From Gallionella sp. (GTDB taxonomy: Bacteria > Pseudomonadota > Gammaproteobacteria > Burkholderiales > Gallionellaceae), in assembly GCA_049294375.1 (NCBI GenBank), contig JBAQCT010000155.1, positions 5,974 through 69,973 on the forward strand: a stretch of 64,000 nt of DNA. The letters run 5' to 3'. Below the pieces are notes generated by a model. The model did not search any database and had not been told where the DNA came from. It saw only the letters and a program-made list of their open reading frames with translations. Below, in pieces: positions 19,770 to 61,897 of this stretch (positions are counted from its first letter, which is position 1; each line of letters opens with the position of its first letter). Made by a program: the position numbers and the translations under genes.

Positions 19770-20930
19770 TTAAACCACGCTGCATCGCCGACAAGGCTCT
19801 TTTTGTTGGCGCGCATTGGTTTTATGAATTTCACGTAAAGCATTATATTCCGTTGAACGCCAGATATTGCCAAGATTACCATCGGTAAATTTTCCCACTG
19901 AAAGTGTCGATTTATAGTCCACATCACAAGGGTTTACCTGGCCGTCCCACCAAACAAACATGCGCCGCCAAAGATCTGAACAACGCTGTGATATCCCGTT
20001 AATCGGGCTATGGTAAGTATCTTCCCAGGGGTTATAGTTGACAAAAGCCACCTGATCAGCCAATTCACCCCAGAAGCTTTGCATCTCATCCAGGTTTTGT
20101 TGATCGGACATCTTAACCCCCGATACTCGAGTAATAATGTTGGCATCAGGATACTGGGTAGCGCGAATTTTCTGGAAACGTTCGATATTGGCAAGTACCT
20201 TATCCAGTTTCCCGCCTACACGGAGCCGACTGTAAAGCGGCTCTGACGCCGCATCAGCTGAAAAAACCAGCGTTTTTACGCCGCCCTGCAGAATGGCATG
20301 GCATTTACTCTCATCCAGCAAAGAGGCATTGGTGTTCATCTTGAGGTTGAGAAACTTCCCGCGTGTATAGGCCAGCATCTTTTCGATATCGGGGCATAGC
20401 AGGGGCTCGCCGCGTGACGCAAGCGAAAGAAATTCTACTTTCCCCTGGATTTCGTCGATTATGCGCTGAAAAAGATCCAGCGGCATATACCCCATAAAAC
20501 CGCTGGAGCGCCGTGTGAAGGCCTTGTCGCTCTCAAAACAGAACACACAGCGATAATTGCAGATAGAGCTTGGTTCTATCTGGAGGTAGGGCGGGTAGTC
20601 ATCCAGTTCTGCAAGCTGCGGGTAGATTTCGTAACGATATCGATGCACGATATATCTGGGCAAATCATCGTCTGAAAGAGTATTGATTTCCTCAATAACA
20701 CTGGGTGTTAGCTGCAGGCATGGTGCATTTTTTTCTTCGTCAGCCAAAATATCCCGCACAGCACGGTCAAGGATGCCCTGCCATGCATCCGACAGCCCAT
20801 CACCTCGCTGCGGTTTGTTTTGTAATAACTTGATGCGTGAGATTACTGTTTCCTGGAGCGCGCCTTGCCGCGAGCGCAAATCGACAAAACTGTTATGTTT
20901 GCGATATGTGGGGTTGTCCCCAATGGTCAT
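19770..20930 (-). CDS. Radical SAM enzyme with C-terminal SPASM/twitch-like Cys-rich domain
   Basis: CNYRCVFC (CxxxCxxC). C-terminal CSDLWRRMFVWWDGQVNPCDVDY...CRRC. Confidence 0.85.
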   Translation of the reverse strand: MTIGDNPTYRKHNSFVDLRSRQGALQETVISRIKLLQNKPQRGDGLSDAWQGILDRAVRDILADEEKNAPCLQLTPSVIEEINTLSDDDLPRYIVHRYRYEIYPQLAELDDYPPYLQIEPSSICNYRCVFCFESDKAFTRRSSGFMGYMPLDLFQRIIDEIQGKVEFLSLASRGEPLLCPDIEKMLAYTRGKFLNLKMNTNASLLDESKCHAILQGGVKTLVFSADAASEPLYSRLRVGGKLDKVLANIERFQKIRATQYPDANIITRVSGVKMSDQQNLDEMQSFWGELADQVAFVNYNPWEDTYHSPINGISQRCSDLWRRMFVWWDGQVNPCDVDYKSTLSVGKFTDGNLGNIWRSTEYNALREIHKTNARQQKEPCRRCSVV

Positions 20931-21694
20931 AATGAAAGCTCACCCGGTTTTGCCTCTTCAAACCCATGCTTGCGCAGCCAGTATTCGACCTGAGGTAATT
21001 GCCATTCATAGTCGATATCACAACCGCCCCACGATTTGATGGGATGGATTCGTTGCCCCATCCATTTTTGTGGAAGTAAGCCGTCCTTCAGATTATCTAG
21101 GCAATGGGGACGCACGATGGAAAGTCCCATGTCGGCGAAACACACATCCCCTTGAGAGTCTCTATCGCAGTTAAGGGTTGCCGGGTCACCAAAGGTTTCA
21201 AACGGTACAAAAGGATGAAGGCATCCATCTTCTCCGATGCGTCTGGCGCGCAACGGGCTCCACATGTTGTATACAGAAACAGTGACTGCAGAATCCAATG
21301 TGTAGTTGTTTCTGAGTTTTTCAATGCCTTCGTCGATCAATGCTCCGGTGACAGTTGCTCCATTGGCGAAAAGCAGCACCATCAATTCCACGGTTTCACC
21401 CTTTGCTGCAAGCATCTTGACGATTTCCCGGTAGCCTTGGGCAAAAACATCTTCGCCCAAGGCCGCCTTGGTGGCTAACTCGGGAGGGCGGTCAATCAGT
21501 TCAGCGCCAAATCTTTGACCAATTTCCATGATTTCGGGCGAATCAGTCGAGACGAAAAGCCTGTCCACATAACGGGAAGCGCGCGCCGCCATCAGTGGAT
21601 ATGATGCCAGCGGGCGCCCCAAAACAGGATAAATGTTTTTACCGGGGAATCCGACGCTGCCGGCACGGCCAATCATCAGTGCGCAAATAGTCAA
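20927..21694 (-). CDS. Acylneuraminate (NeuA/PtmB-family) cytidylyltransferase
   Basis: ALMIGRAGSVGFPGKNIYPVLGRPLASYPL...VSTDSPEI...IDRPPELA family pattern. Confidence 0.82.
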   Translation of the reverse strand: MTICALMIGRAGSVGFPGKNIYPVLGRPLASYPLMAARASRYVDRLFVSTDSPEIMEIGQRFGAELIDRPPELATKAALGEDVFAQGYREIVKMLAAKGETVELMVLLFANGATVTGALIDEGIEKLRNNYTLDSAVTVSVYNMWSPLRARRIGEDGCLHPFVPFETFGDPATLNCDRDSQGDVCFADMGLSIVRPHCLDNLKDGLLPQKWMGQRIHPIKSWGGCDIDYEWQLPQVEYWLRKHGFEEAKPGELSL

Positions 21695-21732
21695 AATTTT
21701 CTCCTCAATTAATTTGGCACGGCTATAAGCAT

Positions 21733-22716
21733 TTACAGCCCCTGCCTTTGAACCTCATATTCATCGGGCGGCACCGAGCCTTTAAGAGGGTTTCCGGTGA
21801 GAAAACGCACAGCTTCTTCAGTGGCCTCAATTTCCATCCGTGTTCGGCAATCTATGGACATCGAACCCATGTGTGAGGTTAGCAGGCAGCGTTCAATGGC
21901 CGCCAGCGGGCCTGTGTATGGCTCATGCACGAATACATCAATGGCCGCTCCACCCAAATGCCCTGAATTAAGAGCATCGGCCAAGTCCTGCTCGTTAATG
22001 ATCCCTCCGCGTGAGGCGTTGATCAACAGTGCATCCGGCTTCATGAGCCTGAGATGGTCTGCGCGAATCATGTTTTTGGTGTGCGCGGTAAGGGGTACGT
22101 GCAGGCTGATTATATCGGCTTGGCGGTAAATCTCTTCCTTGCCTACCCATTCCAGCTTGAGTTCAGGTACCAGTTTTGTATCCGGGCGTATATCGTTGAC
22201 CAGAATGCGCGGTGTGCCAAAACTGCTCAAACGTGTCAGCACGCGGCGACCGATACGCCCTACGCCGATGATGCCAATGGTGACTTCGGGAATACGCCGT
22301 CCAAAGTGGCGTTGCCATTCGCCGCGATGTAGTTGGGCGTTGGCTACATGCACGAAACGCAGCAAGGACAGCATGAATCCGATAGTTAATTCTGCCACGG
22401 CCGGTGCCGGTGCATCAGGGGTGTAGCTCACATGGATGTCACGGCGCTCGGCGGCCAAAAGGTCGACGCTGTCCAGCCCAATCCCGACACGCGAGATCAG
22501 CTTCAGCCGGCTGGCGCGGCTCATGACCTTGTCGGTGATGGGCTCGGTTCCCGCGATCAGAACATCGAAATCGGCAACCATGTTTGCCAGCTCATCTTCT
22601 TTCAGTTTGCGGCCAAGGGGGTTGATCGAATATTCAATACCGGCAGCCTCAAGCAATTCGAGCGGCAGTCGGTTTTTGTCGCCGAAGGGGACGGTAGTTA
22701 TGAGGGCTTTGGGCAT
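21733..22716 (-). CDS. D-isomer-specific 2-hydroxyacid dehydrogenase (phosphoglycerate/glycerate dehydrogenase-like)
   Basis: IGIIGVGRIGRRV NAD motif, NASRGGIINEQDL, AAIDVF, and catalytic-His region LTSHMGS. The likely start is ATG 22716 (MPKALITT); the track ORF runs to 22863. Confidence 0.85.
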   Translation of the reverse strand: MPKALITTVPFGDKNRLPLELLEAAGIEYSINPLGRKLKEDELANMVADFDVLIAGTEPITDKVMSRASRLKLISRVGIGLDSVDLLAAERRDIHVSYTPDAPAPAVAELTIGFMLSLLRFVHVANAQLHRGEWQRHFGRRIPEVTIGIIGVGRIGRRVLTRLSSFGTPRILVNDIRPDTKLVPELKLEWVGKEEIYRQADIISLHVPLTAHTKNMIRADHLRLMKPDALLINASRGGIINEQDLADALNSGHLGGAAIDVFVHEPYTGPLAAIERCLLTSHMGSMSIDCRTRMEIEATEEAVRFLTGNPLKGSVPPDEYEVQRQGL

Positions 22717-22942
22717 GTCGGGCAGCTTCGTTAAAGAAGGTTTTTTAAATTTTCTATGTAATTCAATTACATGGCTAGAGTAATGTTTGATTGGAGTGGC
22801 TATCTGGAGGCACGGAAGATAGCCGCTGACCATTACGTTAATTGTACTGCTGGTTTTGCACAATCGTTAACAAATCGTTATATGCGAAAGCGGGGCATGC
22901 ATGGTTTTTCATCATGCAGGAGTTTAGCTGTCAGTTTGGTTG

Positions 22943-26039: not shown

Positions 26040-27893
26040 TTATCGTCCACGCCGCAGTGGTGCCATTTCCGGCGCATCCGAGTGTAACGGAGGCAGTTGC
26101 TTATCGACGATCTTTCTCAGCGAGTCGTGCTCAATCAGTAATTCCTTTCGCTTAGAACCCAAGGTGTAGTTGTACACATCTTTGCATGTGGCTATGAGGC
26201 CTTCCGTCTTAATTACTTGCGCCAAATGATAAAGAATGGCGATAAACTGAAAGCGGTCAATCACCACTGGGTGGAGTAATGCGAACAATGCCAGCTTGCG
26301 TTGGCGCAGCAGCGTCCAATTGCTTGGTAGATGCACCTCATTGCGTCCTAGTTCAGGGTTTCTTGTGATATCTTGCCCACGATCAATGATGAGATTGTCG
26401 GTGACCTTCTTGATTCCGCGAAGAAATGGCTCAAAATTGGAATTTTGTTTCAATTTGCTGCGGTAATGTTCTATACCAAATTTACGGACATAATTGGCAG
26501 CAACACGGAACATCACGCGCGTGCGCCACGAATGGCGGATAAAATTAGGTACGTTGGTCATATTGAGGGAAACAGTAATATTGGAGGCGTTTCGATCTGA
26601 GACATCAAGCAGATAACGTTCTTCTGAATCAATGCCCTGGCCAATTAGACCTTTTCTACGCGCAAACTCATACAATGGTGTGCCTGGTAAAGCTTGGGCA
26701 TAGTTGATGCTGATATGCAAAGGGTCTCGATCAGGCCCTATGTTTTTGGCATAAGTCAACAGCTCGGCGGTTTCAAAAACCGTCTCGGTTGATTCACCAG
26801 GCATCCCCATAATAATTTCAGGAGTGAGTTCTATGCCAATTTCGTGCAGCCAGCGTATCGCGTTATAATTGTCTTCGATTTTAAGCTTCTTTTCCATAAC
26901 CTTGAGCATTCTTTCGCTACCGGTCTCAATGCCCATGCAAATACTGGAGGCTCCGGCATCGTGCATCATTTTTAGCCGTTCCGGGTCGACGCAATTGACA
27001 CGCATGCCTGCGACTTGCCAAAGTACATCAAATGGCTTGATGCGTTTGCAAAATTCAGTTAGCCAGCGAAGATCGGTGCCAAAATTTTCATCGGCGATTG
27101 AGACGAAGCCCACGTTATATTTCTCAATCAGGTATTCGAGCCGCTTTGCGATGAGTTCCGGCGGAATATAACGAATGCCCTTGTCCCAGCGGTGGCAAAA
27201 TGTGCAGCGTGCCACGCACCCCTTTGCACCAGGCAGGCTTGTAATCGTTTTATTACGGCGGTGGGGTTGGTAGGCTCTTTTATCCTTGGCAAACCAAGGG
27301 AATGCTTTACCATTTTCGTTAAAAGCGGGGAAAACGAACGTATTAATGTTGGAAGATTTTTCCAGATCGCACCAATCGATATCGTAAATTTCTTCGCGCG
27401 ATAGTGGTTCTTCATACCCTGTGTTAACTAAATTTTTGGACTGATCGAGCAACATAAGGCCAGGAATGTCCGCAAAAGCCATTGGGCTGCGCGTTGTCTG
27501 TGCGCGTTTTACAACGTTGAGCATCACCTTTTCGCCTTCGCCGAGGACACACAAATCAACGCCAGCTCGACGCAAAAGAATCTCAGCGCTTGCGGCGAGC
27601 CCCCCTCCAACGATGATCAATGTCTCAGGGAGCATGCGCTTGATGTCGAGAGCTAGCCGTTTGGTATACGTATAGGCTGTAGAAACAACCGCGCTGATAC
27701 CTAAAACTTCAGGGCGTTGTTCACGGATATGCGTGAGCACATCCTCATAGCTTGGTCGATTGCCGTCAATATTGTAGAACTCGACATCGCTGATACCGTT
27801 TTTGCGCAGATAGCTTAAGATACTTAAGCTGCCGAATGGTGGAAATGATGTGGGGTACGTACGAATCGGAGTTGTAACAATCATCGTTTTCAT
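26040..27893 (-). CDS. Cobalamin-binding (class B) radical SAM enzyme
   Basis: N-terminal B12-binding-type domain (EVLGISAVVSTAY...LIIVGGGLAASAE) and the CVARCTFC radical SAM motif. 617 aa with a long C-terminal extension. Confidence 0.88.
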   Translation of the reverse strand: MKTMIVTTPIRTYPTSFPPFGSLSILSYLRKNGISDVEFYNIDGNRPSYEDVLTHIREQRPEVLGISAVVSTAYTYTKRLALDIKRMLPETLIIVGGGLAASAEILLRRAGVDLCVLGEGEKVMLNVVKRAQTTRSPMAFADIPGLMLLDQSKNLVNTGYEEPLSREEIYDIDWCDLEKSSNINTFVFPAFNENGKAFPWFAKDKRAYQPHRRNKTITSLPGAKGCVARCTFCHRWDKGIRYIPPELIAKRLEYLIEKYNVGFVSIADENFGTDLRWLTEFCKRIKPFDVLWQVAGMRVNCVDPERLKMMHDAGASSICMGIETGSERMLKVMEKKLKIEDNYNAIRWLHEIGIELTPEIIMGMPGESTETVFETAELLTYAKNIGPDRDPLHISINYAQALPGTPLYEFARRKGLIGQGIDSEERYLLDVSDRNASNITVSLNMTNVPNFIRHSWRTRVMFRVAANYVRKFGIEHYRSKLKQNSNFEPFLRGIKKVTDNLIIDRGQDITRNPELGRNEVHLPSNWTLLRQRKLALFALLHPVVIDRFQFIAILYHLAQVIKTEGLIATCKDVYNYTLGSKRKELLIEHDSLRKIVDKQLPPLHSDAPEMAPLRRGR

Positions 27894-31639: not shown

Positions 31640-32736
31640 GCCATCATCCTTTCTACAGCTCCGATCATGCGCTCAGAAGAACCCAAAAAACGGCTCCCAA
31701 ACGGCGTAATGGATGGTTCGCGCACATCTTGCCGACCACTCAATAATAGCTTCAATTCATCCCTTGTTGTCGCCGGGAGTGTCGCGCCCAATCTGTTGCC
31801 TATAAACATCGACGAATTCCCTCCGGGCATAAAGCTGATGACATCGTTGCGCACCAAAGCGGCTTCAAGCAACAACATCGAATACATCCCAACGATCCGT
31901 CCTGCTGACATAATCAGCTTTGCGTTATCAGCATCTTTTAAAATTTCCAGCCTGTTGCCGAGCTCATGGCCAACGAAATTAGTGTATTTATCTACAGGTT
32001 CCTGCGGGTGCAGCTTGACCAATATCCTTGATTTCGAGAGATCAGCAGAACTTAGCAGCGCTTCAAGCACCTCAAATTCATCGAATCCTCGATAAAGGGG
32101 GGAGCCTTTTGGAAAATCCTCGCGCACTCGTTCCGATATGTATACGACGGTATCATCGTGCTTGCAAATACCCTGTGCTTGCAACACGCCAATTTGATGT
32201 TCCAGATGAGGCTGCCCTACCACATCGATCCGATTGCCGGGCAGACCGGCAGCAATAGCTTCGGCGCTGGCCATCTCGTCATTGACCCAGATTCGATCCG
32301 GCAAAAATTTATCAAGGTCGGTGATTTTCCCATCGGCGACCCTTGCAAAGCGCTCCCGATAGAGATCCCAATGCTCGACTACGGCTGCACACGGGGTTTC
32401 GTGTTCGCGTGCGGCGAGCGTCAGTGCTTTATCGATTGTCGGGCCCCATGATGTTCCGGTTAATACAGCCTCGGGTTGCTGTTCAGCGATAATGCGCTTG
32501 CCCAGATCATGTAGCTCATCCCAGGAAAGTTGCTGGACTGATGTGTAAGGAATACTCCAGCGATCAAATACTCGTGCCGCATGAGTCTGTGCAAAAACAA
32601 CGTAAGGGCGAGAGAGGCGTACAAGCATCGGCGCCATTGCGTTGGCTGAGCCGGTATCACATGCTGTAACAAGCAGACACCCAGAGCCACGTTGGGCCTG
32701 CGACCGCTTATATCCACTGCTAACCGCTGCCAGCAT
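31636..32736 (-). CDS. Uncharacterised 366-aa protein, possibly GT-B fold (PseG/SpsG-like?)
   Basis: Clean ORF, translationally coupled on both sides. The pattern VVGQPHLE...ILVKLHPQEP...IVGMYSMLLLEAAL suggests a two-Rossmann GT-B layout. The PseG/SpsG idea rests on adjacency to the SpsF-like gene only. Confidence 0.4.
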   Translation of the reverse strand: MLAAVSSGYKRSQAQRGSGCLLVTACDTGSANAMAPMLVRLSRPYVVFAQTHAARVFDRWSIPYTSVQQLSWDELHDLGKRIIAEQQPEAVLTGTSWGPTIDKALTLAAREHETPCAAVVEHWDLYRERFARVADGKITDLDKFLPDRIWVNDEMASAEAIAAGLPGNRIDVVGQPHLEHQIGVLQAQGICKHDDTVVYISERVREDFPKGSPLYRGFDEFEVLEALLSSADLSKSRILVKLHPQEPVDKYTNFVGHELGNRLEILKDADNAKLIMSAGRIVGMYSMLLLEAALVRNDVISFMPGGNSSMFIGNRLGATLPATTRDELKLLLSGRQDVREPSITPFGSRFLGSSERMIGAVERMMA

Positions 32737-33706
32737 TTTTGGAGCACTTCAGGCAAACAGCATTCTCGCGGAACCGGCCTTCTGCGTGAAGCTTGCGCAG
32801 GCTCTTGGCTTCCGGAGAGTTCCAGAGCTCCACCAGGCTGTGTTCATGCATGTTGCCAAGCTTGAGATAACTGCTAAACATTGCGCAGCATGGGGTGACA
32901 TCACCGTTCCCGCGAATATACAAGCGTTGCCAGGGTTGCTGGCAACGAAATTCTGGAACGGGCGTGCGATCGGCAACATCGAGATAGCCGTAGTCGCCCT
33001 GAATATCCGGTGTCATGAAATCCTGGATGACGATATAGTCAACTTTGTCGTTCCAGTAATGCTCGAAAGCTTCTGCCTCATGGGCATTAAGCGCCATTTT
33101 CACAAAATTCACTCCAACTTTCGGCAAGGCAGACTTGAGGCGGCTGCGAACGTTGAGAAAAGTCTCGACGTTTTGCATTACTTTGGCAAAGTTGCCGCCT
33201 ATGCGGATCTTGCTGTACGTTTCGCTGGTAATGGCATCCAGGCTGAACCTAAGCCTCGTAAGGCCGGATTCCACAATGCGCACTGCCAGATTCTCATTCA
33301 TCACCGACCCGTTGGTATTCACCATGATGTCTTGAAAACCCGCATCCTTGGCCATTCTGAACCAATCCGGCATTTGCTTGACCAGAAACGGCTCATTGTC
33401 GCCCTGGAATGAAATGGATGGGCATTTGTATTGCTTGGCCTGCTCCAGAATTTTCGCAATGTCATGTGTTTCCAGGCGCTCACTGTAGCCAAATTTCTTC
33501 TTCAGCTCAGTAACGCCTTGGGTGCACATAGGGCAGCGAAAATTGCACTTATAATTCGATTCGATATGGAGAAACAGGGGAAACTCCGTTTCCAGTTCGA
33601 ACTGGTTCGCCAGATCCCACTTCTCACGATAAGCGTTAAACTCCTGCCCACGCAGCCGTTTTAACTCTTCTACAGCATCTGCCTCGGTTCGGTATTTGAT
33701 AGTCAT
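32720..33706 (-). CDS. Radical SAM enzyme with C-terminal SPASM/twitch-like domain
   Basis: CNFRCPMC motif. C-terminal CQQPWQRLYIRGNGDVTPCC...CLKCS. The likely start is ATG 33706 (track ORF runs to 33751). Confidence 0.85.
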   Translation of the reverse strand: MTIKYRTEADAVEELKRLRGQEFNAYREKWDLANQFELETEFPLFLHIESNYKCNFRCPMCTQGVTELKKKFGYSERLETHDIAKILEQAKQYKCPSISFQGDNEPFLVKQMPDWFRMAKDAGFQDIMVNTNGSVMNENLAVRIVESGLTRLRFSLDAITSETYSKIRIGGNFAKVMQNVETFLNVRSRLKSALPKVGVNFVKMALNAHEAEAFEHYWNDKVDYIVIQDFMTPDIQGDYGYLDVADRTPVPEFRCQQPWQRLYIRGNGDVTPCCAMFSSYLKLGNMHEHSLVELWNSPEAKSLRKLHAEGRFRENAVCLKCSKNAGSG

Positions 33707-33716
33707 GCGCAGTCTG

Positions 33717-40474: not shown

Positions 40475-42157
40475 TTATCTTCGATCAGCATCTAAAGCAA
40501 TGTTCCTGACGCGTTTAATGATAGCTGTAACAAACGGGATTTTCTCTGCGTAAAAACGCAGGCGCGGGTTCCTCAGATATAACCCCTTAAGCCCATAAGC
40601 CGCATGGAGTTTAATTTTCTGCCAAGCACTATAGTTATCCGGGAAGGCTTTAAGTGTGCTGACTCGATATCGACGAAGGCAGCGTTTGCAATTGACAGGG
40701 AAATGCGGTGAGATATTGGTTTGGTGAAAGTTGTTGTAAATATCTATCGCTTGGCATTCTGGGCATTGTAAAGTGATGGAATAATAATTGGTGCCCTCTT
40801 TGTCGCAACCAGTTTTGTGTGAAGCTATCACTTTTCCACGGGTTTTAAAACGGCTATCCGCCATGTATATATTGGTTTTCGATAGGATCGCACTAAATTT
40901 TAAGTCCGGCATTTCCGTTAGGTTGATGATTGGAAATTTATTTTTCATGTATTCGAACTCATCCTTAATCAGCCCCTTTTTTAAGGCTAACTGGTAAAGC
41001 CTGGAATTCGGTATTGTGAGTATCGGATAAAGAGCGAGGTCATACTCAGGATGTTTTTTCCACCACTCTAGGGAAATTTCGAATGTTTCTTCAGTTTCAG
41101 CTGGGTCGCCGATTAGAATGTTGCCTGTAACGCCGATTTTTGCTTCACGAGTAGTTCGAAGCGCATCTTCGATTTGCTTTGAAGTGATTTTCTTCTTCAT
41201 GCTTATCAGAATATCGTCGTTGACGCTCTCAATACCATAACTTATCAACATAAGCCCTGATGCCTTCAGGGTCCGCAGCAGAGCCAAGTTTACATCACCG
41301 ACCCTGAGTTGAGCCGTCCATAAGAGATGGTATGGTGTAATTCGAGCGGCAAATTCCAACATGCGATCTTCTTTAATTGAAAAAAGATCGTCCATTAATC
41401 CAATGGCATTAATACCGTAATTTTCTCTTAAAAAATCTATTTCTTTAAATACATTTTCTATCGAACGTTGCCGATATACACGCCCCAAAGGCTGATAGCA
41501 GAATGTGCATGAAAAAGGGCAGGAGCGTGATGAAATAATATTAGCCAGCCGCACATCATCCAGCATTTGAAAAGGGCTGGCGTTTGGTTTCATTAGCGCT
41601 ACATGCCGCTCAAATTCCCATCCTTCATAATCTGGCATAGGGAGAGCATCCAACTCCATAATCGCTTTTCTTTCCCCTGTAGAAACAAATTTTCCTTGCT
41701 TATCTTTAAAGACAATGCCGGTCACAGCAGACACATCACCGCCGTTGCAAAGAGTTTCTGCAAGTTCAGCCATGGTGTACTCGCCCTCTTTAGTTACACC
41801 ATAATCAATTTGCATATTTTCGATTGAAAGCTGCGGGTGTGCTGTGATAATCGCTCCACCTACCACTGTGATTATCTTTGGATTGATTCGCTTGGTGATT
41901 TCTAGAACTTCATTAATGCCATCAAATTGAACGGACATGCCACCCAAGCAAACCACGTTAATTTCATCTGAGATGATTTTCTTTCTTAATCGAGTTTCGA
42001 CGGATTCATTACTTGCAAAATTTAAATCTAAATAATGAGGGTGAAATCCCCGCTCCTTCATGACGGCTGTCACATATGCTAAACCATAAGGGAAGCCGTG
42101 TTGCTCCTTGTCACGTGTTTCTTTTTGCATCACAAAAAGAAAATTTAGATTGCCCAT
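40475..42157 (-). CDS. Cobalamin-binding (class B) radical SAM enzyme with C-terminal Cys4 zinc-ribbon-like tail
   Basis: B12-type domain (VVCLGGMSVQF...IITVVGGAIITAHP), CPFSCTFC motif, and C-terminal CPECQ...CKRC. Confidence 0.88.
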   Translation of the reverse strand: MGNLNFLFVMQKETRDKEQHGFPYGLAYVTAVMKERGFHPHYLDLNFASNESVETRLRKKIISDEINVVCLGGMSVQFDGINEVLEITKRINPKIITVVGGAIITAHPQLSIENMQIDYGVTKEGEYTMAELAETLCNGGDVSAVTGIVFKDKQGKFVSTGERKAIMELDALPMPDYEGWEFERHVALMKPNASPFQMLDDVRLANIISSRSCPFSCTFCYQPLGRVYRQRSIENVFKEIDFLRENYGINAIGLMDDLFSIKEDRMLEFAARITPYHLLWTAQLRVGDVNLALLRTLKASGLMLISYGIESVNDDILISMKKKITSKQIEDALRTTREAKIGVTGNILIGDPAETEETFEISLEWWKKHPEYDLALYPILTIPNSRLYQLALKKGLIKDEFEYMKNKFPIINLTEMPDLKFSAILSKTNIYMADSRFKTRGKVIASHKTGCDKEGTNYYSITLQCPECQAIDIYNNFHQTNISPHFPVNCKRCLRRYRVSTLKAFPDNYSAWQKIKLHAAYGLKGLYLRNPRLRFYAEKIPFVTAIIKRVRNIALDADRR

Positions 42158-42270: not shown

Positions 42271-43521
42271 TCAATTCAATAAGTGTGGGTGGGATTCAAT
42301 AAAGTTAGGCCACATGATAGCCAGCTTATCAATCGCCAAAGCTTGCGAGCTTCCTCTTTGCCACTCTGCCCATTCAGCGTCTGAAATAGACCGTTCAATG
42401 AATCTGCGGTACATCGCCTTGGTGATTTCCAAGATATCGTCTTCTGAATTATCCTCAAATGTTAGACCCAGATTTTCCATTGTGTACATTAAGTCAAACA
42501 TCGAGTTTGGTTTGTGGAATAGAGCAAAATAGTCTCTAATACTTATATAATTTCCTGACTCTTTGTATTTGATTAATTTTGGGATGGTTAAACGATCTCT
42601 CCTGCCGATGTCCATAAAACCCCACAAATAGTAATTCACCATGGCCATTGGAACATCAGTAATTCTCGATAGATCAATTGTTCCCGATGCATTGCCGACA
42701 GAAAAATTACAGTGACAAGCCAAGTAGAAATCCGCAAAGTCAGATTTGAAAGGGCTAAAAGGATAATCAATAAAGCGTGGGTGCGAATAGGCAACCCTGT
42801 TTTTTACGACGCTCCCCATCCTTATAACATAGCCCCCCTTGGAGATAATATAATCAATGGCTTTGCAATATGTATTTATATCCGAATCTCGGCACTGATG
42901 ATGGAGTTTATACGCGTCAAGCTGACGTGTTAAGTTTTCGTTGTACGCAGAATCTCTGGCGGAAAAGCAAACATACCAAGATTGGCCAAAGGTAATCCCC
43001 ATTCTTCGTAGTAGGTCGCGTCCCTCAGCATGGTGCTCGTGAGAGAACCATTGTATCAATGTCGGTTTCTGGAAAGAGTCATCATTTAGTTTTAGGACTT
43101 CTGCGGAGCCGATTAATCGAAATTTACTTGTTATCCTCGCCAATGGTGCTAGCAATATCCTGATTGGCAAATTGGTAACAACTTGCACCTTTGACTTCAT
43201 TAAATCAAAAAAGAATTTATTTGAAATTTTCTTGGGGTTGATTAAAAATATATCTTTGGTGGTTTGATGGCATTCTGACTGTCTTCTTCTAAGGTAAGAA
43301 TCCAACGTGGCAACCCATCCGCCGATATGTCTTGTATCGATCTCAAACACGCGAATCCTTCTATTCGTGATGACTAGGTAGATAGTTGCAATTAAATAAA
43401 CTAATGGAAATACCGCCCAATTGCAGAAATATTCCAAATTTCTAGTTATGAGGTGAAACACGCTAACGCTAATTTGGCGATCTTTGAGCCTCGCTTTTAT
43501 CAGCTTGAGGTTTATGACCAT
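42271..43521 (-). CDS. Uncharacterised 416-aa protein (putative non-canonical glycosyltransferase)
   Basis: Clean ORF overlapping the upstream rSAM gene by 10 nt. It has N-terminal TM-like helices. The C-terminal half (CRDSDINTY...GGYVIRMGS...FYLACHCNFSVGNASG) loosely resembles orphan surface-carbohydrate transferase families. No secure motif. Confidence 0.4.
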   Translation of the reverse strand: MVINLKLIKARLKDRQISVSVFHLITRNLEYFCNWAVFPLVYLIATIYLVITNRRIRVFEIDTRHIGGWVATLDSYLRRRQSECHQTTKDIFLINPKKISNKFFFDLMKSKVQVVTNLPIRILLAPLARITSKFRLIGSAEVLKLNDDSFQKPTLIQWFSHEHHAEGRDLLRRMGITFGQSWYVCFSARDSAYNENLTRQLDAYKLHHQCRDSDINTYCKAIDYIISKGGYVIRMGSVVKNRVAYSHPRFIDYPFSPFKSDFADFYLACHCNFSVGNASGTIDLSRITDVPMAMVNYYLWGFMDIGRRDRLTIPKLIKYKESGNYISIRDYFALFHKPNSMFDLMYTMENLGLTFEDNSEDDILEITKAMYRRFIERSISDAEWAEWQRGSSQALAIDKLAIMWPNFIESHPHLLN

Positions 43522-44501
43522 TCGGCGTTGTCCAATGCGGATAATTTATTGTAATACGTGTAAAGGGGGGAGCGACGAATCAGATGACCGTCCTGAATCT
43601 CTTCTGTGTAGGATTCCTGACTCCACCCATTACAAGAAGAGCAAATAGCTATTTCATCCCACCGCCCCGCCTCGTGGAGCTTTCTGGCAGCATTAAACTT
43701 TTCACCGTTCCATATGTCGCTCAAATTTTCATTGAAAGCATTGCCCACATTTGTAGTTCTGAAACCATCCAGGCAGCAAATACTCACAGTGCCATCGCTG
43801 TGAATGGGCATGGTTTTATATAAAGCTGGGCAAGGTGTCCTATCCTTCGGAGAGGCCAAATTATAAAAATGACCATTCTCGAATTGGTGGCTAATCCGGA
43901 TAACATCAACCTCCCCAAGCCAGCGGGCCACAAACGCATCCAATTCACCTTCGTTTGCTTTTTGAACAGTAAAGGAAACGCCAATACGCGGGTAGATTTT
44001 GCTGCCACGAGCAGTAAGCATTTTTGTAACAGCTCTTTCCAGCACAGAAATCTTATTGATTCCTCGAACTTTCATTAGGGTCGAAGGAGTAACCGCATCA
44101 ATACTGAACATAATTGCATCAAGCTGCACTTCAACAAAAAATTTTGCTAGTTCATCAGTTAGTGCGATCCCATTAGTGTTCATCGCCACTTTGAGGCCTT
44201 TGCTCTTTATCAGTGAAACATACTTGGTAAAATTCGGCACTATTAAAGGCTCTGCCCAAAGAGAGGGATGCACCATAGGGCGAGACTCATATAATTGCTC
44301 AAGTATAGTTAGCGCATATTGCTCTGGCATAATGCCTTTTACTTTTTCTGATTTAATGCCATTGTTCTCGTTCCAAATAAGGCATTGTGGGCACCTCAAA
44401 TTACAATCTGTAGCAAAATCAATCAGGACTCTTAAGGGGAAATCTGGAAGATTTGGAATTGATTCTGGATTGCCAACGGCAAGGTTTTTCATTTTATTCA
44501 T
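43512..44501 (-). CDS. Radical SAM enzyme with C-terminal SPASM/twitch-like domain
   Basis: CNLRCPQC motif. C-terminal CPALYKTMPIHSDGTVSICC...CSSCNGW. Confidence 0.85.
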   Translation of the reverse strand: MNKMKNLAVGNPESIPNLPDFPLRVLIDFATDCNLRCPQCLIWNENNGIKSEKVKGIMPEQYALTILEQLYESRPMVHPSLWAEPLIVPNFTKYVSLIKSKGLKVAMNTNGIALTDELAKFFVEVQLDAIMFSIDAVTPSTLMKVRGINKISVLERAVTKMLTARGSKIYPRIGVSFTVQKANEGELDAFVARWLGEVDVIRISHQFENGHFYNLASPKDRTPCPALYKTMPIHSDGTVSICCLDGFRTTNVGNAFNENLSDIWNGEKFNAARKLHEAGRWDEIAICSSCNGWSQESYTEEIQDGHLIRRSPLYTYYNKLSALDNAEWS

Positions 44502-47682: not shown

Positions 47683-47729
47683 AGGGGGCGAGTCGCGGCA
47701 AGGCCAGAACTTGATCCCGGGTGAAGGCT

Positions 47730-48086: not shown

Positions 48087-48103
48087 GTGATGGTCAATGT
48101 ACG

Positions 48104-49859: not shown

Positions 49860-49872
49860 AAGCTAGCCTTGT

Positions 49873-57597: not shown

Positions 57598-57600
57598 TGA

Positions 57601-58754: not shown

Positions 58755-58834
58755 ACCGTCCCCTTAATATTTGCAGATTGCGAGTTTGCGATAATTCAAA
58801 CGACCTAGTTGTTCCTGGTGCGAGAGAATCGAGA

Positions 58835-59563: not shown

Positions 59564-59587
59564 ACTGCTTGTTCCTTTCGTAGATAA

Positions 59588-60112
59588 TCATTTTTGAAAA
59601 ATCAGTCTGCTCGCGTCTTCAAGCGATACGACCACCGCGTCCGGATTATCGGCGCGGCGCTCCCGGTATTCATAATCGATAAAAAAAGTGTAGCAGCCTG
59701 CCGCTTTTCCAGCAGCCACGTCACGCCATCGATCCCCTACAATAAAACTGCGCGCGAGGTCTATATGCCATTCGCGAGCTGCTTCAATCAGCATTCCAGG
59801 TTTTGGCTTGCGGCAATCGCAGCCGCTTGCATCCACGTGATAACACACCTTGATGTCATCGCATAATCCTGCTGCGCGCAGCTTATCGTGCATCGCCTCC
59901 ACCACTTCCCGGCGCTGGACTCCCGTGGCGACATCGGGCTGGTTCGTGACAACAACGATCAAGAAGCCGGCTTTGCGCAGAGCACGCATCGCGCGTTCGG
60001 CTCCCGGGAGAAGCTCGAAATCATCGATAGTAGCCGGAGGATATGGTATTCCGTCGCGCACCACAGCGCGATTGATGACACCATCACGATCGAGGAACAC
60101 CGCTCTTTTCAC
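59588..60112 (-). CDS. gmhB: D-glycero-D-manno-heptose 1,7-bisphosphate phosphatase (HAD)
   Basis: VFLDRDGVIN (DxD), VVTNQPDVA, Zn-loop CYHVDASGCDCRKPKPGM, and GDRWRDVAAG. Confidence 0.9.
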   Translation of the reverse strand: MKRAVFLDRDGVINRAVVRDGIPYPPATIDDFELLPGAERAMRALRKAGFLIVVVTNQPDVATGVQRREVVEAMHDKLRAAGLCDDIKVCYHVDASGCDCRKPKPGMLIEAAREWHIDLARSFIVGDRWRDVAAGKAAGCYTFFIDYEYRERRADNPDAVVVSLEDASRLIFQK

Positions 60113-60154
60113 GTCAGTTCACGTTAGTTGTGTAGCGGGTCCAGTGTGTGACCC

Positions 60155-60736
60155 TTACCATTTCGTTGCGATTTGCTGCAGGCCGGGATGCGACACGAGG
60201 CAATGCCAGACTACCGCCTGAAATGCTTCGGTGTGTGGAGTAATTCTGGTGTCGTCTATAGTGGGGATAACGATCACGGCATCGCCAACCTGTTTGGTAT
60301 AGCCGCCATCACGCCCAACCACCCCCATTATTGTTAGCTCACGGGTTTTGGCTTCTTTAAGAGCTTGTACGATGTTGGTGCTTACATTCTTTTCCACGTT
60401 ACCGCCGCCGACCGAAAATACGAACACCGCATCGTTTGAATTGGCTTTACTGGTGCGCAACCACGCGGCGAAAACAGTCTCCCACCCTTCATCGTTGGTG
60501 CGAGCGGTCAATTCCGATACATTATCAACAGGCGTATAAGCCTCAATACCGCAAAGTTTGCGAAAGTCGTTTACCGCATGACTACAGTTCGCCGCGCTGC
60601 CACCAACCCCTAACAAGAATAATCGTCCTCCGCGTTTGCGAAGAGCTGACAGTTCGGAAACCATCCTTTCTATTGCCGTTACATCAATCGATTTTGCTAT
60701 TTCACTTACTTCTTCAAAATATTTTTTCGTGTGCAT
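60155..60736 (-). CDS. gmhA: SIS-domain sedoheptulose-7-phosphate isomerase
   Basis: 193 aa. GGRLFLLGVGGSAANCSHAVNDF SIS block, and context next to gmhB and the HldE-like gene. Confidence 0.85.
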   Translation of the reverse strand: MHTKKYFEEVSEIAKSIDVTAIERMVSELSALRKRGGRLFLLGVGGSAANCSHAVNDFRKLCGIEAYTPVDNVSELTARTNDEGWETVFAAWLRTSKANSNDAVFVFSVGGGNVEKNVSTNIVQALKEAKTRELTIMGVVGRDGGYTKQVGDAVIVIPTIDDTRITPHTEAFQAVVWHCLVSHPGLQQIATKW

Positions 60737-60802
60737 ACGATGTATTCTCTCACTGGTTCTAGGGGGATTCGGAAAGCAGGCGCTGATGGAGCGAGTGCCC
60801 CT

Positions 60803-61897
60803 TTAAATAAAATTTACATGCTGAACGGGATTTTCGCATAACTGGAAGAGATAGCGATTAACTTCGTCCATGCGGCAATTCTTTCGGCAGTCTTTGATGT
60901 TCAATTCATTGCGAACAAAGAAGAAACTCTGGCGCCGTCGCTCGCCTTCCCATATTTCTTTGAAACTTTGCTCATTCACGTTGCCATATTCGAATCGCTT
61001 GTCTTCGAGATACGCGCTGCAACCATAGACTCTCCCATCGGTCATGATATGCGCCCAGACGAACGGTGTGGACAGGCACTTGGTATAGCGCTCCGAGTCC
61101 TGGACGTATTTTTTCATAGTGTTGGCGCGACAGATCAGCGAAAAGAAATCAGTTGACAAGGGTTCCAGCTTCTCGGCTATGGCTGTGTATGCGGAGTAAT
61201 CGACATCATGCTGGTTTTGGCTAAAAAGGTGCTGGGAGTACGGCTTGACCACCAAGTAATCAAGACCTATTTCGTCACGGCACAGCTTGGCTAGAGCCTC
61301 TATTTCGTGGGCGTTTTCCGGTATGAGCAAAATTTGGGCGCCAATCGTGCAATCGAGATGATTGGAATTTCGATAATTAATCGCCTTTTTCAAATTTTCT
61401 ATGACTCTTGAGAAATCGCGTTCGCGTGTACGATGAATCCTGGCGTAGGTGTCTGCCGTTCCCGCATTGACGGATGCCTTTATCCATGACACATGTCGAA
61501 TGGACTTCTGAATAAATTCATCATTTAACAATGTGGCGTTGGTCTGAAAGGCCATGTCAATGCCAGCATTCTTTGTCATCTCGACAATTTCGTTGATCTT
61601 CTTGTGCAGCAAAGGCTCTCCTTCGCCGGCATACATTATGCTCTTGACGCCTAAAGCACCCATTTCTGGTAGAAGGCGCTCCAGCATTTTAATGTCATAC
61701 ATGATCGACTTGTAGCCGATGTAATCATAAGCACAAAAAGTGCAGCGATGATTGCAGGCACCGACTGGAGACATTTCCACATAAATGGGATAGACGGCCT
61801 TCGCTTTTTCCCAGTCGCCACCCGCATCCATCAGTTGAGCGACCCGCTTGGGGTGGTACATGAGTTTGTGGCTATCGATACGAAAAATGTCGGACAT
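60803..61897 (-). CDS. Radical SAM enzyme with C-terminal SPASM/twitch-like domain
   Basis: CNHRCTFC motif. C-terminal [20 protein letters not shown]...CRKNC. Confidence 0.85.

Follow-up and report, generated by a model that had tools for sequence, protein, structure and literature searches.

Four radical SAM genes (S1–S4) lie in a low-GC surface-glycan island of about 50 kb in a Gallionella MAG. Most likely, with a probability of about 0.7, they encode four distinct enzymes with one twitch-type auxiliary [4Fe-4S] site each, set in separate sugar-activation and sugar-tailoring modules, which remove hydrogen from the carbinol carbons of sugars activated with CMP or NDP and so give keto-sugars for neighbouring enzymes. 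We infer substrates, reaction type and cluster binding from gene context and from homology at 15–20% identity. The stretch of DNA analysed (64,000 nt) is called the window. GC content in the island changes from block to block (0.41–0.52), against 0.54–0.57 in the flanking atp operon.

All four ORFs are on the minus strand, at the coordinates and with the motifs proposed for them in an earlier sequence-only reading. That reading missed three more radical SAM genes, of the B12-binding class (class B), which were picked up by a CxxxCxxC scan and Pfam:

60803..61897, minus strand: S1, DesII/BlsE-like radical SAM with one four-Cys auxiliary site (C274, C293, C337, C341); Pfam Radical_SAM and SPASM
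43512..44501, minus strand: S2, BtrN-like twitch radical SAM (C224, C242, C243, C287, C290); Pfam
32720..33706, minus strand: S3, BtrN-like twitch radical SAM (C255, C273, C274, C318, C321 and conserved C95); Pfam
19770..20930, minus strand: S4, BtrN-like twitch radical SAM (C317, C335, C380, C383 and C179); Pfam
40475..42157, minus strand: class-B radical SAM, CPFSCTFC motif; Pfam B12-binding and Radical_SAM
26040..27893, minus strand: class-B radical SAM, CVARCTFC motif; Pfam B12-binding and Radical_SAM
16616-18154, minus strand: class-B (B12-binding) radical SAM; CxxxCxxC scan and Pfam

The longest ORF for S3 runs from a GTG (32720-33751), but homologues of 324–332 aa match the version starting at ATG-33706 from its first residue, and this start, the one called in the sequence-only reading, is therefore preferred.

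Architecture and relatives

S1–S4 each score above the Pfam gathering thresholds for both Radical_SAM (PF04055, E 1e-10 to 1e-21) and SPASM (PF13186, E 1e-10 to 3e-16), so their motifs are not chance occurrences. The SAM-cluster motif is CNHRCTFC in S1 (C48/52/55), CNLRCPQC in S2, CNFRCPMC in S3 and CNYRCVFC in S4. The (Q/N)TN(A/G) block (FQTNAT, MNTNGI, VNTNGS, MNTNAS) and the S-x-(D/N)-A block (SVNAG, SIDAV, SLDAI, SADAA) are also present, as is the C-terminal Cys-rich motif of S2 (CPALYKTMPIHSDGTVSICC...CSSC). Family alignments show just 4–5 conserved C-terminal Cys per family, including one four-Cys set in each (spacing CX17-18C X43-44 CX2-3C, conservation at least 0.95). By the published definition, a twitch region has 3–4 Cys and one cluster, and a SPASM region 7–8 Cys and two clusters (PMC9477430). 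The four-Cys set fits the former, and the auxiliary region of S1–S4 is therefore taken as a twitch with one predicted cluster; of the earlier “SPASM/twitch-type” label, the radical SAM core with an auxiliary region stands, but a full SPASM domain does not.

The genes had also been described as four paralogous copies of one family. Pairwise identities are 22–30%, with S1 the outlier (E 1e-6 to 1e-17 against S2, S3 and S4), and each instead represents an old orthologue family of its own, of one of two kinds, BtrN-like (S2, S3, S4) or DesII/BlsE-like (S1). HMM classification, a check suggested along with that description, confirmed the Pfam families; searched against the PDB, the family profiles of S3 (1.2e-20), S2 (2.2e-19) and S4 (2.4e-14) have BtrN as top match, with the next-best matches at 1e-12 or weaker, while that of S1 matches DesII/BlsE best (1.6e-8). 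In S3, C255, C273, C318 and C321 are each paired with a BtrN Cys. Structure prediction, likewise suggested, gave the same assignments for S3 and S1: the AF2 model of S3 (pLDDT 91.9) has BtrN (4M7T) as its top Foldseek match, and that of S1 (pLDDT 79.5), of moderate confidence and with poorly predicted cluster loops, has DesII (8HZV) at 2.6e-15, with BlsE (7VOB) at TMt 0.69.

Among solved structures, BtrN, the 2-deoxy-scyllo-inosamine dehydrogenase of the butirosin pathway, is thus closest to S2, S3 and S4 by the family profiles, and to S3 also by fold, and it shares their layout, with a twitch region C-terminal to the radical SAM core. Its substrate is a carbohydrate-like carbinol, and the resulting ketone passes to a DegT-type aminotransferase. 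Identity over the structural alignment is however about 17–18%, the window proteins are 60–140 aa longer, with N-terminal extensions, and the C-F of BtrN is replaced by a CC pair in S2 and S3. Contexts differ as well, BtrN belonging to an aminocyclitol antibiotic cluster and S2, S3 and S4 to CMP-ulosonate or NDP-higher-sugar surface-glycan modules. For S1, DesII (TDP-4-amino-4,6-dideoxyglucose deaminase/dehydrogenase) and BlsE (cytosylglucuronate decarboxylase) are the best relatives by both profile and fold, and their nucleotide-linked substrates fit its place beside nucleotidyltransferase-kinase and SDR genes. S1 reaches 48 bits against a DesII equivalog cut-off of 450, has no adjacent DesI-type partner and, with its invariant set of four auxiliary Cys and its Pfam SPASM match, differs from DesII, which is not known to carry a cluster other than the SAM one.

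Maturation of peptides and proteins is the best-known role of SPASM-domain enzymes, and S1–S4 could be such maturases (anSME-, PqqE- or tungsten-enzyme-maturase-like), acting on a protein or cofactor in or outside the island, for example a ribosomal peptide or the Fe-ADH whose gene always adjoins S3 in close orthologue loci. The top NCBIfam partial matches are in fact TIGR04317 (tungsten cofactor oxidoreductase maturase, 88–95 bits against a cut-off of 380) and, also below cut-off, TIGR04311 (putative metalloenzyme maturase), so that core sequence cannot tell sugar enzymes from maturases. This reading nevertheless appears very improbable. Scores for anSME (23–38 bits against 349) and PqqE (32–50 against 381) are, like those for TIGR04317, far under the cut-offs, and the TIGR04317 match of S2, S3 and S4 spans the radical SAM core alone. 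No PqqD/RRE domain was found in S1–S4, even when N-terminal extensions were searched alone at E<=10, and there was no sign of a peptide substrate; genes around S1–S4 overlap or are 3–66 nt apart, leaving no room for a precursor-peptide gene, and S2 and S4 have no conserved candidate protein client. The 4–5 conserved auxiliary Cys compare with seven typical of two-cluster maturases, and among solved structures BtrN and DesII come closest.

The families had been called largely undescribed, and this holds: none of the NCBIfam equivalog models reached its cut-off for S1–S4, full-text searches found no papers in which radical SAM enzymes were connected with nonulosonic-acid or heptose pathways, and no characterisation of these families was found in the published literature.

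Sugar modules around the four genes

The proposal that S1–S4 are embedded in sugar pathways is borne out by their sugar-acting solved relatives, by abutting or overlapping sugar genes and by neighbourhoods conserved across phyla. The flanking genes are as described earlier except for a 416-aa “orphan” next to S2, which is a TIGR04372-family glycosyltransferase; the partners named for S1 and S2 fared less well. The S1 module was annotated with Pfam and NCBIfam:

60155-60736, minus strand: SIS isomerase
59588-60112, minus strand: HAD-IIIA phosphatase
58835-59563, minus strand: transaldolase
57601-58602, minus strand: SDR
56029-57597, minus strand: nucleotidyltransferase and PfkB kinase fusion

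S1 is 100% identical to a protein of a ‘Gallionella sp.’ MAG and has 4978 homologues, with 65–70% identity across phyla. Elsewhere its orthologues are flanked by the SDR, SIS and NTase/kinase set (4/5 loci) and a thiamine enzyme (5/5); the ABC exporter named as its partner is not conserved. The closest cross-genus relative (locus L180) has a different gene context.

The S2 lineage is rare, with 62 representative clusters at E<=1e-30. Its surroundings were annotated with Pfam, and the glycosyltransferase with NCBIfam:

49873-50523, minus strand: methyltransferase
49008-49859 and 48104-49018, minus strand: split transketolase
47730-48086, minus strand: NUDIX
46435-47682, minus strand: DegT aminotransferase
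45656-46441, minus strand: AAC(3)-like N-acetyltransferase
42271..43521, minus strand: TIGR04372-family glycosyltransferase, 416 aa (158.6 bits, cut-off 45)

Among 14 S2-orthologue loci of at least 9 kb, TK_C was found in 11, TK_N, DegT and NAT in 10 each, NUDIX in nine and MT in eight. The glycosyltransferase gene overlaps the S2 stop by 10 nt but is absent from all 14, and it and the FkbM gene, named as the S2 partners, are not conserved; TK, DegT, NAT and NUDIX are.

S3 has 223 homologues, including one in Leptospira interrogans at 62% identity. Its partners (Pfam) lie on both sides, the first four upstream and the others downstream:

36717-38963, minus strand: NeuB fusion (CBS-NeuB-SAF-AP_endonuc_2)
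35450-36631, minus strand: KdnA-like DegT transaminase (KdnA 5K8B, 2e-36)
34784-35446, minus strand: CMP-transferase
33717-34802, minus strand: KdnB-like Fe-ADH oxidase (full-length homologue of KdnB, PDB 5K8C, E 1.2e-116)
31636-32736, minus strand: 366-aa protein, weak polysialyltransferase-like match
30872-31639, minus strand: second CMP-transferase
29902-30921, minus strand: GFO/IDH/MocA oxidoreductase
28617-29918, minus strand: DegT

The S3 gene is 10 nt from the Fe-ADH gene and overlaps the next gene by 17 nt. The string from NeuB fusion through DegT, CMP-transferase and Fe-ADH to S3 is collinear in L. interrogans and four distinct metagenome loci, the downstream order is repeated in four loci (L089, L091, L093, L094), and a CTP_transf_3 gene is present in 30 of 41 S3-like loci. 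KdnB and KdnA of the Shewanella Kdo8N pathway resemble the Fe-ADH and upstream DegT, not S3; we know of no radical SAM partner or NeuB-type synthase in that system, whereas here the KdnA/KdnB-like pair shares its surroundings with S3, the NeuB fusion and two CMP-transferases. As an octulosonate 8-oxidase, KdnB catalyses the C8 oxidation with which Kdo8N biosynthesis begins (PMC5125639). With two canonical oxidation-transamination pairs near S3 (KdnB-like with DegT, GFO with DegT), a simple ketone-for-amination role of S3 is therefore not required.

S4 has 2619 homologues (~61% identity in cyanobacteria) and a conserved N-terminal extension of ~110 aa, for which no Pfam or RRE match was found. 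Its module (Pfam) comprises:

21733-22863, minus strand: 2-hydroxyacid dehydrogenase
20927-21694, minus strand: CMP-transferase
19024-19794, minus strand: FabG-like ketoreductase (SDR)
18154-18987, minus strand: FkbM methyltransferase
16616-18154, minus strand: B12 radical SAM (see above)
15683-16612, minus strand: SDR
15021-15686, minus strand: HAD

The S4 gene shares 4 nt with the CMP-transferase gene and 25 nt with the SDR gene, and cyanobacterial and metagenomic orthologues of S4 are flanked by the same set. All six other loci that were examined have a CMP-transferase gene immediately upstream of the S4 orthologue. An SDR gene is just downstream in four, directly in three of them and after an intervening AP_endonuc_2 gene in Planktothricoides; the other two have an aminotransferase instead. 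Such a swap of ketoreductase and aminotransferase is expected if S4 makes a ketone.

The clustering could also lack any shared functional meaning, chance or mosaic horizontal transfer having brought four unrelated radical SAM genes, some perhaps inactive, together in a hypervariable O-antigen region. The low, blockwise variable GC is as in mosaic glycan loci, S1–S4 are only distantly related, and the modules occur separately in other genomes. It is hard to reconcile this with the catalytic and auxiliary Cys, all intact in S1–S4 and essentially invariant in 20–121 homologues per family, or with the partner set that each gene keeps across phyla, which argues that each is functional within its module. 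Glycan loci with several radical SAM genes also recur (a second twitch gene in 12/41 S3-like loci, a B12 gene in 16/41), and an assembly of this kind is accordingly a most doubtful explanation.

Proposed chemistry

In the preferred reading, as keto-sugar-forming enzymes, S1–S4 would cleave SAM reductively at the CX3CX2C cluster, and the 5'-deoxyadenosyl radical would take H from a hydroxyl- or amino-bearing carbon of the activated sugar. The substrate radical might then pass an electron on to the auxiliary cluster, completing a BtrN-type two-electron dehydrogenation, or undergo beta-elimination (DesII/AprD4-type dehydration or deamination), either way giving a keto-sugar to be reduced, transaminated or extended by a neighbouring enzyme. 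The candidate substrate of S3 is a nonulosonic or octulosonic acid made by the NeuB fusion, whether free or CMP-linked, which the KdnB-like oxidase and KdnA-like transaminase would also handle. S4 would act on a CMP-linked acid sugar, its ketone being reduced by the FabG-like SDR in the window and transaminated in other genomes. For S2 and S1 an NDP-heptose-like higher sugar is suggested, presumably built by the SIS, phosphatase, kinase-nucleotidyltransferase, SDR and transketolase gene products.

[quoted passage not shown] S4 and its overlapping FabG-like SDR follow the same gene-pair logic, a keto-sugar being made and a dedicated reductase finishing, although an aminotransferase replaces the reductase in some S4 loci and the substrate of AprD4 is a pseudodisaccharide, that of S4 probably a CMP-linked acid sugar.

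S1–S4 might alternatively work on the same sugars without net oxidation, as radical epimerases, in which a conserved Cys gives H back to the opposite face after abstraction (as in HygY and NeoN), or as C-C forming or rearranging enzymes, which would join the sugar radical to a second carbon in MoaA-like chain or ring chemistry. In favour are weak matches of S1 to NCBIfam MoaA models and invariant Cys in excess of the eight that two clusters require: C183 and C206 in S1, C243 in S2, C274 and C95 in S3, and C179 in S4. C274 of S3 is aligned to a Phe in BtrN. According to PMC10991966 and a title that it cites, HygY is a twitch-type aminoglycoside epimerase that mutation of one Cys turns into a dehydrogenase, the H donor of NeoN is Cys249, and the choice between epimerisation and dehydrogenation in such enzymes hangs on a single Cys. 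By that description HygY and NeoN resemble S2, S3 and S4 in the chemistry proposed at sugar carbinol carbons, and the extra Cys of these three could play the same role and make them epimerases, which is counted against the dehydrogenase reading; the pathway context differs, and placement of the extra Cys at the active site is conjectural. An epimerase would moreover have no need of a dedicated downstream redox or PLP partner, and the occurrence of a ketoreductase after S4 in some genomes and of an aminotransferase in others suggests that the product is a ketone. Chemistry without net oxidation is thus considered possible but rather unlikely.

S2, S3 and S4 also match the spiro-SPASM model TIGR04321 over its radical SAM/SPASM half (~214–505 of 510; 70–80 bits against a cut-off of 250). 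A CTP_transf_3 N-terminal domain is present in two of ten long S2-like representatives, a fusion not seen in S1–S4, and mirrors the separate CMP-transferase genes beside S3 and S4; to our knowledge this fusion family is uncharacterised. The S1–S4 families themselves are widespread, and each of the four genes is part of a sugar module that recurs across phyla.

Radical SAM genes of the glycan island

The sugar-metabolism genes of the window form one long minus-strand run from about 7 kb to 63.7 kb (7078-63724), with the atp operon as its left boundary. GC content in this island is 0.41-0.52, against 0.54-0.57 in the atp flank, and reaches its minimum of 0.41 around 42-44 kb, in the S2 region. 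Lower GC is usual for surface-glycan loci, and the drop fits a mosaic glycan locus subject to horizontal exchange. A sequence-only reading had proposed four paralogous SPASM/twitch radical SAM enzymes here (S1 to S4), each placed in a sugar pathway beside different partners. All four ORFs are present, their translations carry the motifs described for them, and all exceed the gathering thresholds of the Pfam models Radical_SAM and SPASM. For S3, the proposed ORF at 32720-33706 is a better call than the longest ORF, which begins with GTG at 33751; the ATG start at 33706 is preferred because homologues of 324-332 aa span that version end to end. Scanning all ORFs for CxxxCxxC, and then with Pfam, gave three further radical SAM genes absent from the earlier list. 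All three are of the B12-binding type, so that together with S1-S4 there are seven radical SAM genes in about 45 kb.

Boundary operon and radical SAM genes of the window
1-7068 (operon within), plus strand: atp operon, left boundary of the glycan island; alpha subunit 2731-4272, beta subunit 5222-6619
16616-18154, minus strand: B12-binding and Radical_SAM gene, 512 aa, B12-binding domain N-terminal
19770-20930, minus strand: S4, radical SAM enzyme
26040-27893, minus strand: B12-binding and Radical_SAM gene, 617 aa, B12-binding domain N-terminal
32720-33706, minus strand: S3, radical SAM enzyme
40475-42157, minus strand: B12-binding and Radical_SAM gene, 560 aa, B12-binding domain N-terminal
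43512-44501, minus strand: S2, radical SAM enzyme
60803-61897, minus strand: S1, radical SAM enzyme

The three B12-type (class-B) proteins share just 21-27% mutual identity, and homologues of them accompany S3- and S4-like genes at other loci. S3 is also found, with the same neighbours, on a Logan contig from run SRR28062858. Two other island proteins, of 513 aa (13476-15017, minus strand) and 612 aa (22943-24781, minus strand), have no Pfam or NCBIfam match, lenient thresholds included. The 612-aa protein is kept at 45% identity downstream of the S3 modules in two metagenome loci (L089 and L091), and a newer Pfam family, PF27859 (LIC12162), is found on similar-sized proteins in related S4 loci.

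Families, domain class and closest characterised enzymes

By BLASTP, S2 and S3 are 30% identical, S3 and S4 24%, and S2 and S4 23% (E 1e-22 to 1e-33), while S1 is 22-25% identical to the other three (E 1e-6 to 1e-17). These pairwise identities rule out recent paralogy. What stands of the earlier description as paralogues is a superfamily architecture common to all four; identities are just 22-30%, and each enzyme has its own, far more conserved orthologue family. The S1 family comprises 4978 database proteins at E<=1e-5, with orthologues 65-70% identical in Methylobacter, Methylophilaceae, Verrucomicrobiae, Acidobacteriaceae, and Paludibacterium; S1 itself matches at 100% identity a protein with the annotation "MAG: radical SAM protein [Gallionella sp.]". 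The S4 family (2619 proteins) reaches about 61% identity in cyanobacteria (Planktothricoides, Spirulina, Phormidium), and the S3 family (223 proteins) includes a Leptospira interrogans protein 62% identical to S3 and a large marine clade at 45-47%. The S2 family is rare: searched exhaustively at E<=1e-30, it yields only 62 representative clusters, the best match being 50% identical. Two of the four families run to thousands of members, spread over Proteobacteria, Cyanobacteria, Verrucomicrobia, Spirochaetes, and marine metagenomes.

In Nitrosopumilus/Thaumarchaeota genomes (loci L030, L031, and L041) there are distant S2-like genes at 26-29% identity, so the broader family extends to archaea; on viral contigs there were relatives at <=35% identity only. 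Seven marine-metagenome loci carry S3-like genes 45-48% identical to S3 (L103, L104, L137, L138, L151, L154, and L163), from an abundant clade whose database members are about 359 aa long and fall in clusters of up to 357 member sequences. All seven have one or two extra twitch radical SAM genes nearby, with CMP-transferases in most and a B12 radical SAM gene in some; glycan loci with multiple radical SAM genes are therefore common in the ocean.

The Radical_SAM model PF04055 scores 41.6-77.9 bits in S1-S4 against a cut-off of 29.5, which places all four in the superfamily, and the Pfam SPASM model scores 41.9-60.1 bits against 21.5. Cysteine conservation was counted on alignments of 20-121 family members per gene. 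All four carry the CX3CX2C motif, its three cysteines conserved at >=0.95 in each family, and each family keeps a C-terminal set with the common spacing CX17-18C, X43-44, CX2-3C: C274, C293, C337, and C341 in S1; C224, C242, C287, and C290 in S2; C255, C273, C318, and C321 in S3; C317, C335, C380, and C383 in S4. S2 and S3 have an adjacent extra cysteine (a CC pair), giving five conserved C-terminal cysteines, while S1 and S4 have four. Conserved cysteines of the core are C95 in S3, C179 in S4, and C183 and C206 in S1; C354 of S1 is not conserved in its family alignment. SPASM proteins have seven or eight cysteines binding two auxiliary [4Fe-4S] clusters, and twitch proteins three or four for one cluster (PMC9477430). 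The SPASM/twitch label given previously can thus be narrowed: the Pfam SPASM match and the twitch cysteine set are there, but with 4-5 conserved C-terminal cysteines all four families fall short of the two-cluster count. Since one four-cysteine set is conserved, S1-S4 are of the twitch type and merely match the Pfam SPASM model, each with one predicted auxiliary cluster.

Family profiles of S1-S4 were run against all PDB sequences. BtrN was the top match for S3 (1.2e-20), S2 (2.2e-19), and S4 (2.4e-14), the next ones being 1e-12 or weaker. The alignments cover two stretches, part of the core and the twitch region, and in the S3-family alignment C255, C273, C318, and C321 each fall on a BtrN cysteine. 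An AlphaFold2 model of S3 (pLDDT 91.9, pTM 0.91) has BtrN (4M7T) as its first-ranked Foldseek match (E 1.9e-12, TM 0.73 on the target). S1 differs in that its profile, run against the PDB, did not give BtrN homology of this kind and matched DesII and BlsE best (1.6e-8); its model (pLDDT 79.5) is closest to DesII (8HZV, 2.6e-15), with BlsE at TM 0.69. The likeness of S1 to DesII is at fold and profile level only: it scores 48.3 bits on the DesII equivalog TIGR04426, against a cut-off of 450, and Pfam and NCBIfam matches of its neighbours include no adjacent DesI-like gene. BtrN, DesII, and BlsE are all radical SAM enzymes acting on sugars or nucleotide-sugars. BtrN is the DOIA dehydrogenase of the 2-deoxystreptamine pathway, whereas its homologues S2-S4 are found among NeuB, CMP-transferase, and heptose-like genes, and no aminocyclitol-pathway family is among the Pfam and NCBIfam matches of the 57 window ORFs scanned.

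Classification by HMM did not make S1-S4 ordinary members of a characterised family, an outcome that the sequence-only reading had allowed for. Each protein has 39-54 partial matches to NCBIfam equivalogs, none near cut-off, so no name can be transferred. The maturase of the tungsten-cofactor oxidoreductase (TIGR04317) scores 88.7-94.5 bits against 380, over model positions ~5-190 of 349 for S2, S3, and S4 and, at an equally low score, 6-304 for S1. The spiro-SPASM model TIGR04321 scores 70-80 bits with S2, S3, and S4, which align to its C-terminal half, and 37 with S1, against 250. Spiro-SPASM proteins have a fused N-terminal cytidylyltransferase-like domain; S1-S4 lack it, and S3 and S4 have CTP_transf_3 genes beside them as separate units. 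Of ten long S2-related representatives (442-567 aa), two do have CTP_transf_3 fused N-terminally to the radical SAM/SPASM part, which would be a further link to CMP activation. In the surface-glycan loci of these four families the labels "GTP 3',8-cyclase", "AslB", and generic "radical SAM/SPASM" are mis- or under-annotations.

The same reading had also left room for a peptide substrate. Maturation of peptides or proteins by S1-S4 is very improbable and was rejected as an explanation: neither the whole proteins nor their conserved N-terminal extensions match an RRE or PqqD domain, intergenic gaps of 66 nt or less leave no room for a precursor gene, and a single auxiliary site is conserved. The maturase models are far below cut-off, with 23-38 bits against 349 for anSME (TIGR03942) and 32-50 against 381 for PqqE (TIGR02109).

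Conserved neighbourhoods

Pfam matches around S3 give the order NeuB fusion, DegT, CTP_transf_3, Fe-ADH, S3, a 366-aa protein, CTP_transf_3, GFO/IDH/MocA, and DegT.

Features of the S3 neighbourhood
36717-38963, minus strand: NeuB fusion, 748 aa, CBS-NeuB-SAF-AP_endonuc_2 (xylose-isomerase-like TIM barrel)
35450-36631, minus strand: DegT, KdnA-like, matching 5K8B at 2e-36; a CMP-transferase gene lies between it and the Fe-ADH gene
33717-34802, minus strand: Fe-ADH, KdnB-like, full-length match to PDB 5K8C (E 1.2e-116, 393 bits)
31636-32736, minus strand: 366-aa conserved protein directly after S3, sub-threshold match to the alpha-2,8-polysialyltransferase family PF07388 (E 0.002)

The NeuB fusion is below the NeuB and PseI equivalog cut-offs. 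The next unrelated Fe-ADH matches that of the window at 67 bits. KdnB is the 3-deoxy-D-manno-octulosonate 8-oxidase that begins Kdo8N biosynthesis (PMC5125639); with KdnB- and KdnA-like genes both in place, the region next to the NeuB-type synthase therefore seems to encode a terminal amination like that of Kdo8N. The 366-aa protein may be a transferase for the CMP-sugar.

The first five genes, from the NeuB fusion to S3, are collinear in L. interrogans, where the assembly is fragmented and the NeuB gene has an AP_endonuc_2 gene fragment after it (locus L001, 4757-7018). This pair fits the neuB2 fusion, described in the literature as a synthase-phosphatase. The published NulO cluster of L. interrogans (LA_1605-LA_1615) ends with neuB2, an aminotransferase, and neuA2 (PMC4758666; PMC3438082), and it is with these three genes that the S3 string begins; the Fe-ADH and radical SAM genes are located just past those listed in the two papers. 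Metagenome loci L089, L091, L093/L094, and L096/L097, with S3 60-73% identical, have the string from NeuB to S3 or that from S3 to the second DegT, and both are found together in L091 and L093/L094. Across 41 S3-like loci of at least 8 kb, CTP_transf_3 was present in 30, NeuB in 12, a B12 radical SAM gene in 16, and a second twitch radical SAM gene in 12. These partners thus put S3 within a module for making, CMP-activating, oxidising, and aminating an ulosonic acid. That its substrate is a nonulosonic or octulosonic acid is likely; its reaction may be that of a dehydrogenase, a dehydratase, or an epimerase.

S4 overlaps the CTP_transf_3 gene upstream by 4 nt and a FabG-like SDR gene downstream by 25 nt. 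The set 2-hydroxyacid dehydrogenase, SDR, HAD, CTP_transf_3, and S4 recurs in Planktothricoides, Spirulina, and several metagenome contigs, often accompanied by FkbM and B12 radical SAM genes. A short-chain reductase directly follows S4 in three other loci, and in Planktothricoides an AP_endonuc_2 gene lies between the two; in two other loci a class I/II aminotransferase takes the reductase's place. Such a swap of reductase and transaminase is expected if the product of S4 is a ketone, which, within the picture proposed below, is more likely than not. The swap is also the one indirect pointer to a BtrN-like two-electron oxidation of a secondary alcohol that uses up one SAM.

For S2, one genome per species was scanned with a four-sequence alignment. 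Orthologues 44-51% identical were mostly in Alphaproteobacteria MAGs (Tagaea, Stellaceae, Magnetospirillum, Methyloligellaceae, Rickettsiales), with one in a Marinomonas isolate. All window proteins were then compared by tblastn with 14 S2 loci of at least 9 kb. The immediate neighbours earlier taken as partners of S2 did not hold up, FkbM being found in only three of the 14 and the 416-aa TIGR04372 glycosyltransferase in none. The two parts of a split transketolase were present in 11 and 10, the DegT gene at 46435-47682 and an AAC(3)-like acetyltransferase in 10 each, NUDIX in 9, the methyltransferase at 49873-50523 in 8, the SDR at 57601-58602 in 7, and the SIS isomerase in 6. S2 therefore belongs to a large module of ~43.5-60.7 kb, rather than with its two nearest genes. 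The block at 45656-50523 (minus strand), with the split transketolase, methyltransferase, NUDIX, DegT, and AAC(3)-like N-acetyltransferase genes, accompanies S2 orthologues in loci L010-L026, many of them Alphaproteobacteria MAGs; its content points to an amino-sugar pathway that includes a thiamine-dependent two-carbon step.

Partners of S1 orthologues, compared in Paludibacterium, a Verrucomicrobiae MAG, Methylobacter, and a further metagenome contig, are an SDR, a SIS isomerase, a fusion of CTP_transf_like and PfkB, and an E1/transketolase-type thiamine enzyme. The ABC exporter proposed as a partner is outside this recurrent set; one locus has an ABC gene, ~7 kb away. Three of these loci have a second, S1-like radical SAM gene, and two adjoin a NulO cluster of the legionaminic-acid type. 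The nearest relative from another genus (76% identical) sits in other surroundings, though these are still rich in glycan and transketolase genes. The window's version of the fusion is as follows.

56029-57597, minus strand: HldE-like fusion in swapped order, nucleotidyltransferase N-terminal and PfkB kinase C-terminal, both below the rfaE cut-offs

A bona fide ADP-heptose pathway ("gmhA/gmhB/hldE") was rejected. The SIS gene (60155-60736, minus strand) is a distant relative, with 56 bits against a gmhA cut-off of 209, and the kinase and nucleotidyltransferase are sub-cut-off and swapped; the phosphatase passes HAD-IIIA subfamily models only, and transaldolase is the sole "heptose" gene above its equivalog cut-off. 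The S1 module looks like a non-canonical higher-sugar nucleotide pathway. Its gene logic presumably resembles that of the lincosamide octose pathway (transaldolase, isomerase, kinase, phosphatase, nucleotidyltransferase), and the sugar may therefore be a heptose or octose. Tentatively, S1 could carry out a DesII-like elimination or an oxidation on an NDP-higher sugar.

Proposed chemistry and significance

The observed motifs, conserved cysteines, homology, and neighbourhoods can be drawn together in one general picture, to which we assign a probability of about 70%. After cleavage of SAM, a hydrogen would be removed from an activated sugar at a carbinol (or aminated) carbon. A keto-sugar would then form, either by loss of an electron to the auxiliary cluster, as in BtrN, or by beta-elimination, as in DesII and AprD4, and would be processed by the adjoining reductase, transaminase, or thiamine enzyme. 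AprD4/AprD3 is a precedent for the beta-elimination route (PMC5461906); S4 and its FabG-like SDR match this pair of a radical SAM enzyme and an NAD(P)H ketoreductase in gene pairing. The main alternative, epimerisation or C-C chemistry on the same substrates, is unlikely. It would give a place to the extra invariant cysteines in the S1-S4 families, and NeoN and HygY are precedents; the exchange of reductase and transaminase after S4 is what formation of a ketone predicts.

Radical formation of a keto-sugar would be chemistry of a known kind, that of twitch or DesII-like radical SAM enzymes acting on carbohydrate. What appears to be new are the families, their conserved partner sets, and the proposed substrates, CMP-ulosonates and NDP-higher sugars of primary surface glycans. 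As far as we know, characterised cases of radical SAM chemistry on sugars come almost exclusively from antibiotic pathways (BtrN, DesII, AprD4, NeoN, HygY, BlsE). A search of full-text literature, which leaves subscription journals mostly outside and so is suggestive, gave no link of radical SAM enzymes to nonulosonic-acid, heptose, O-antigen, or flagellin-glycosylation pathways, and in the literature on LPS and cytidylyltransferases they are mentioned only incidentally (a Brachyspira plasmid block, a cyanophage genome). It is possible, with the odds somewhat against it, that S1-S4 represent the first case of radical SAM enzymes in the primary biosynthesis of cell-surface ulosonic acids and higher sugars. 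If they do, S3 and S4 would tailor a nonulosonic or octulosonic acid once NeuB has carried out the condensation, probably when the acid is a CMP-sugar. Together with the KdnB/KdnA-like pair they would provide a late-stage radical route, unlike any known Leg, Pse, or Neu pathway, to nonulosonic acids of amino, deoxy, or epimeric type, and S1 and S2, with the transketolase/E1-type thiamine enzymes, would make heptose-derived sugars with branches or extended chains. Since the S3 string is kept directly after the NulO cluster in pathogenic L. interrogans, it could explain unassigned nonulosonic-acid species there. Four uncharacterised families in conserved surface-glycan sugar modules represent a gap in known chemistry, and O-antigens, capsules, and glycoproteins may hold nonulosonic-acid or heptose derivatives that need radical steps outside current schemes.
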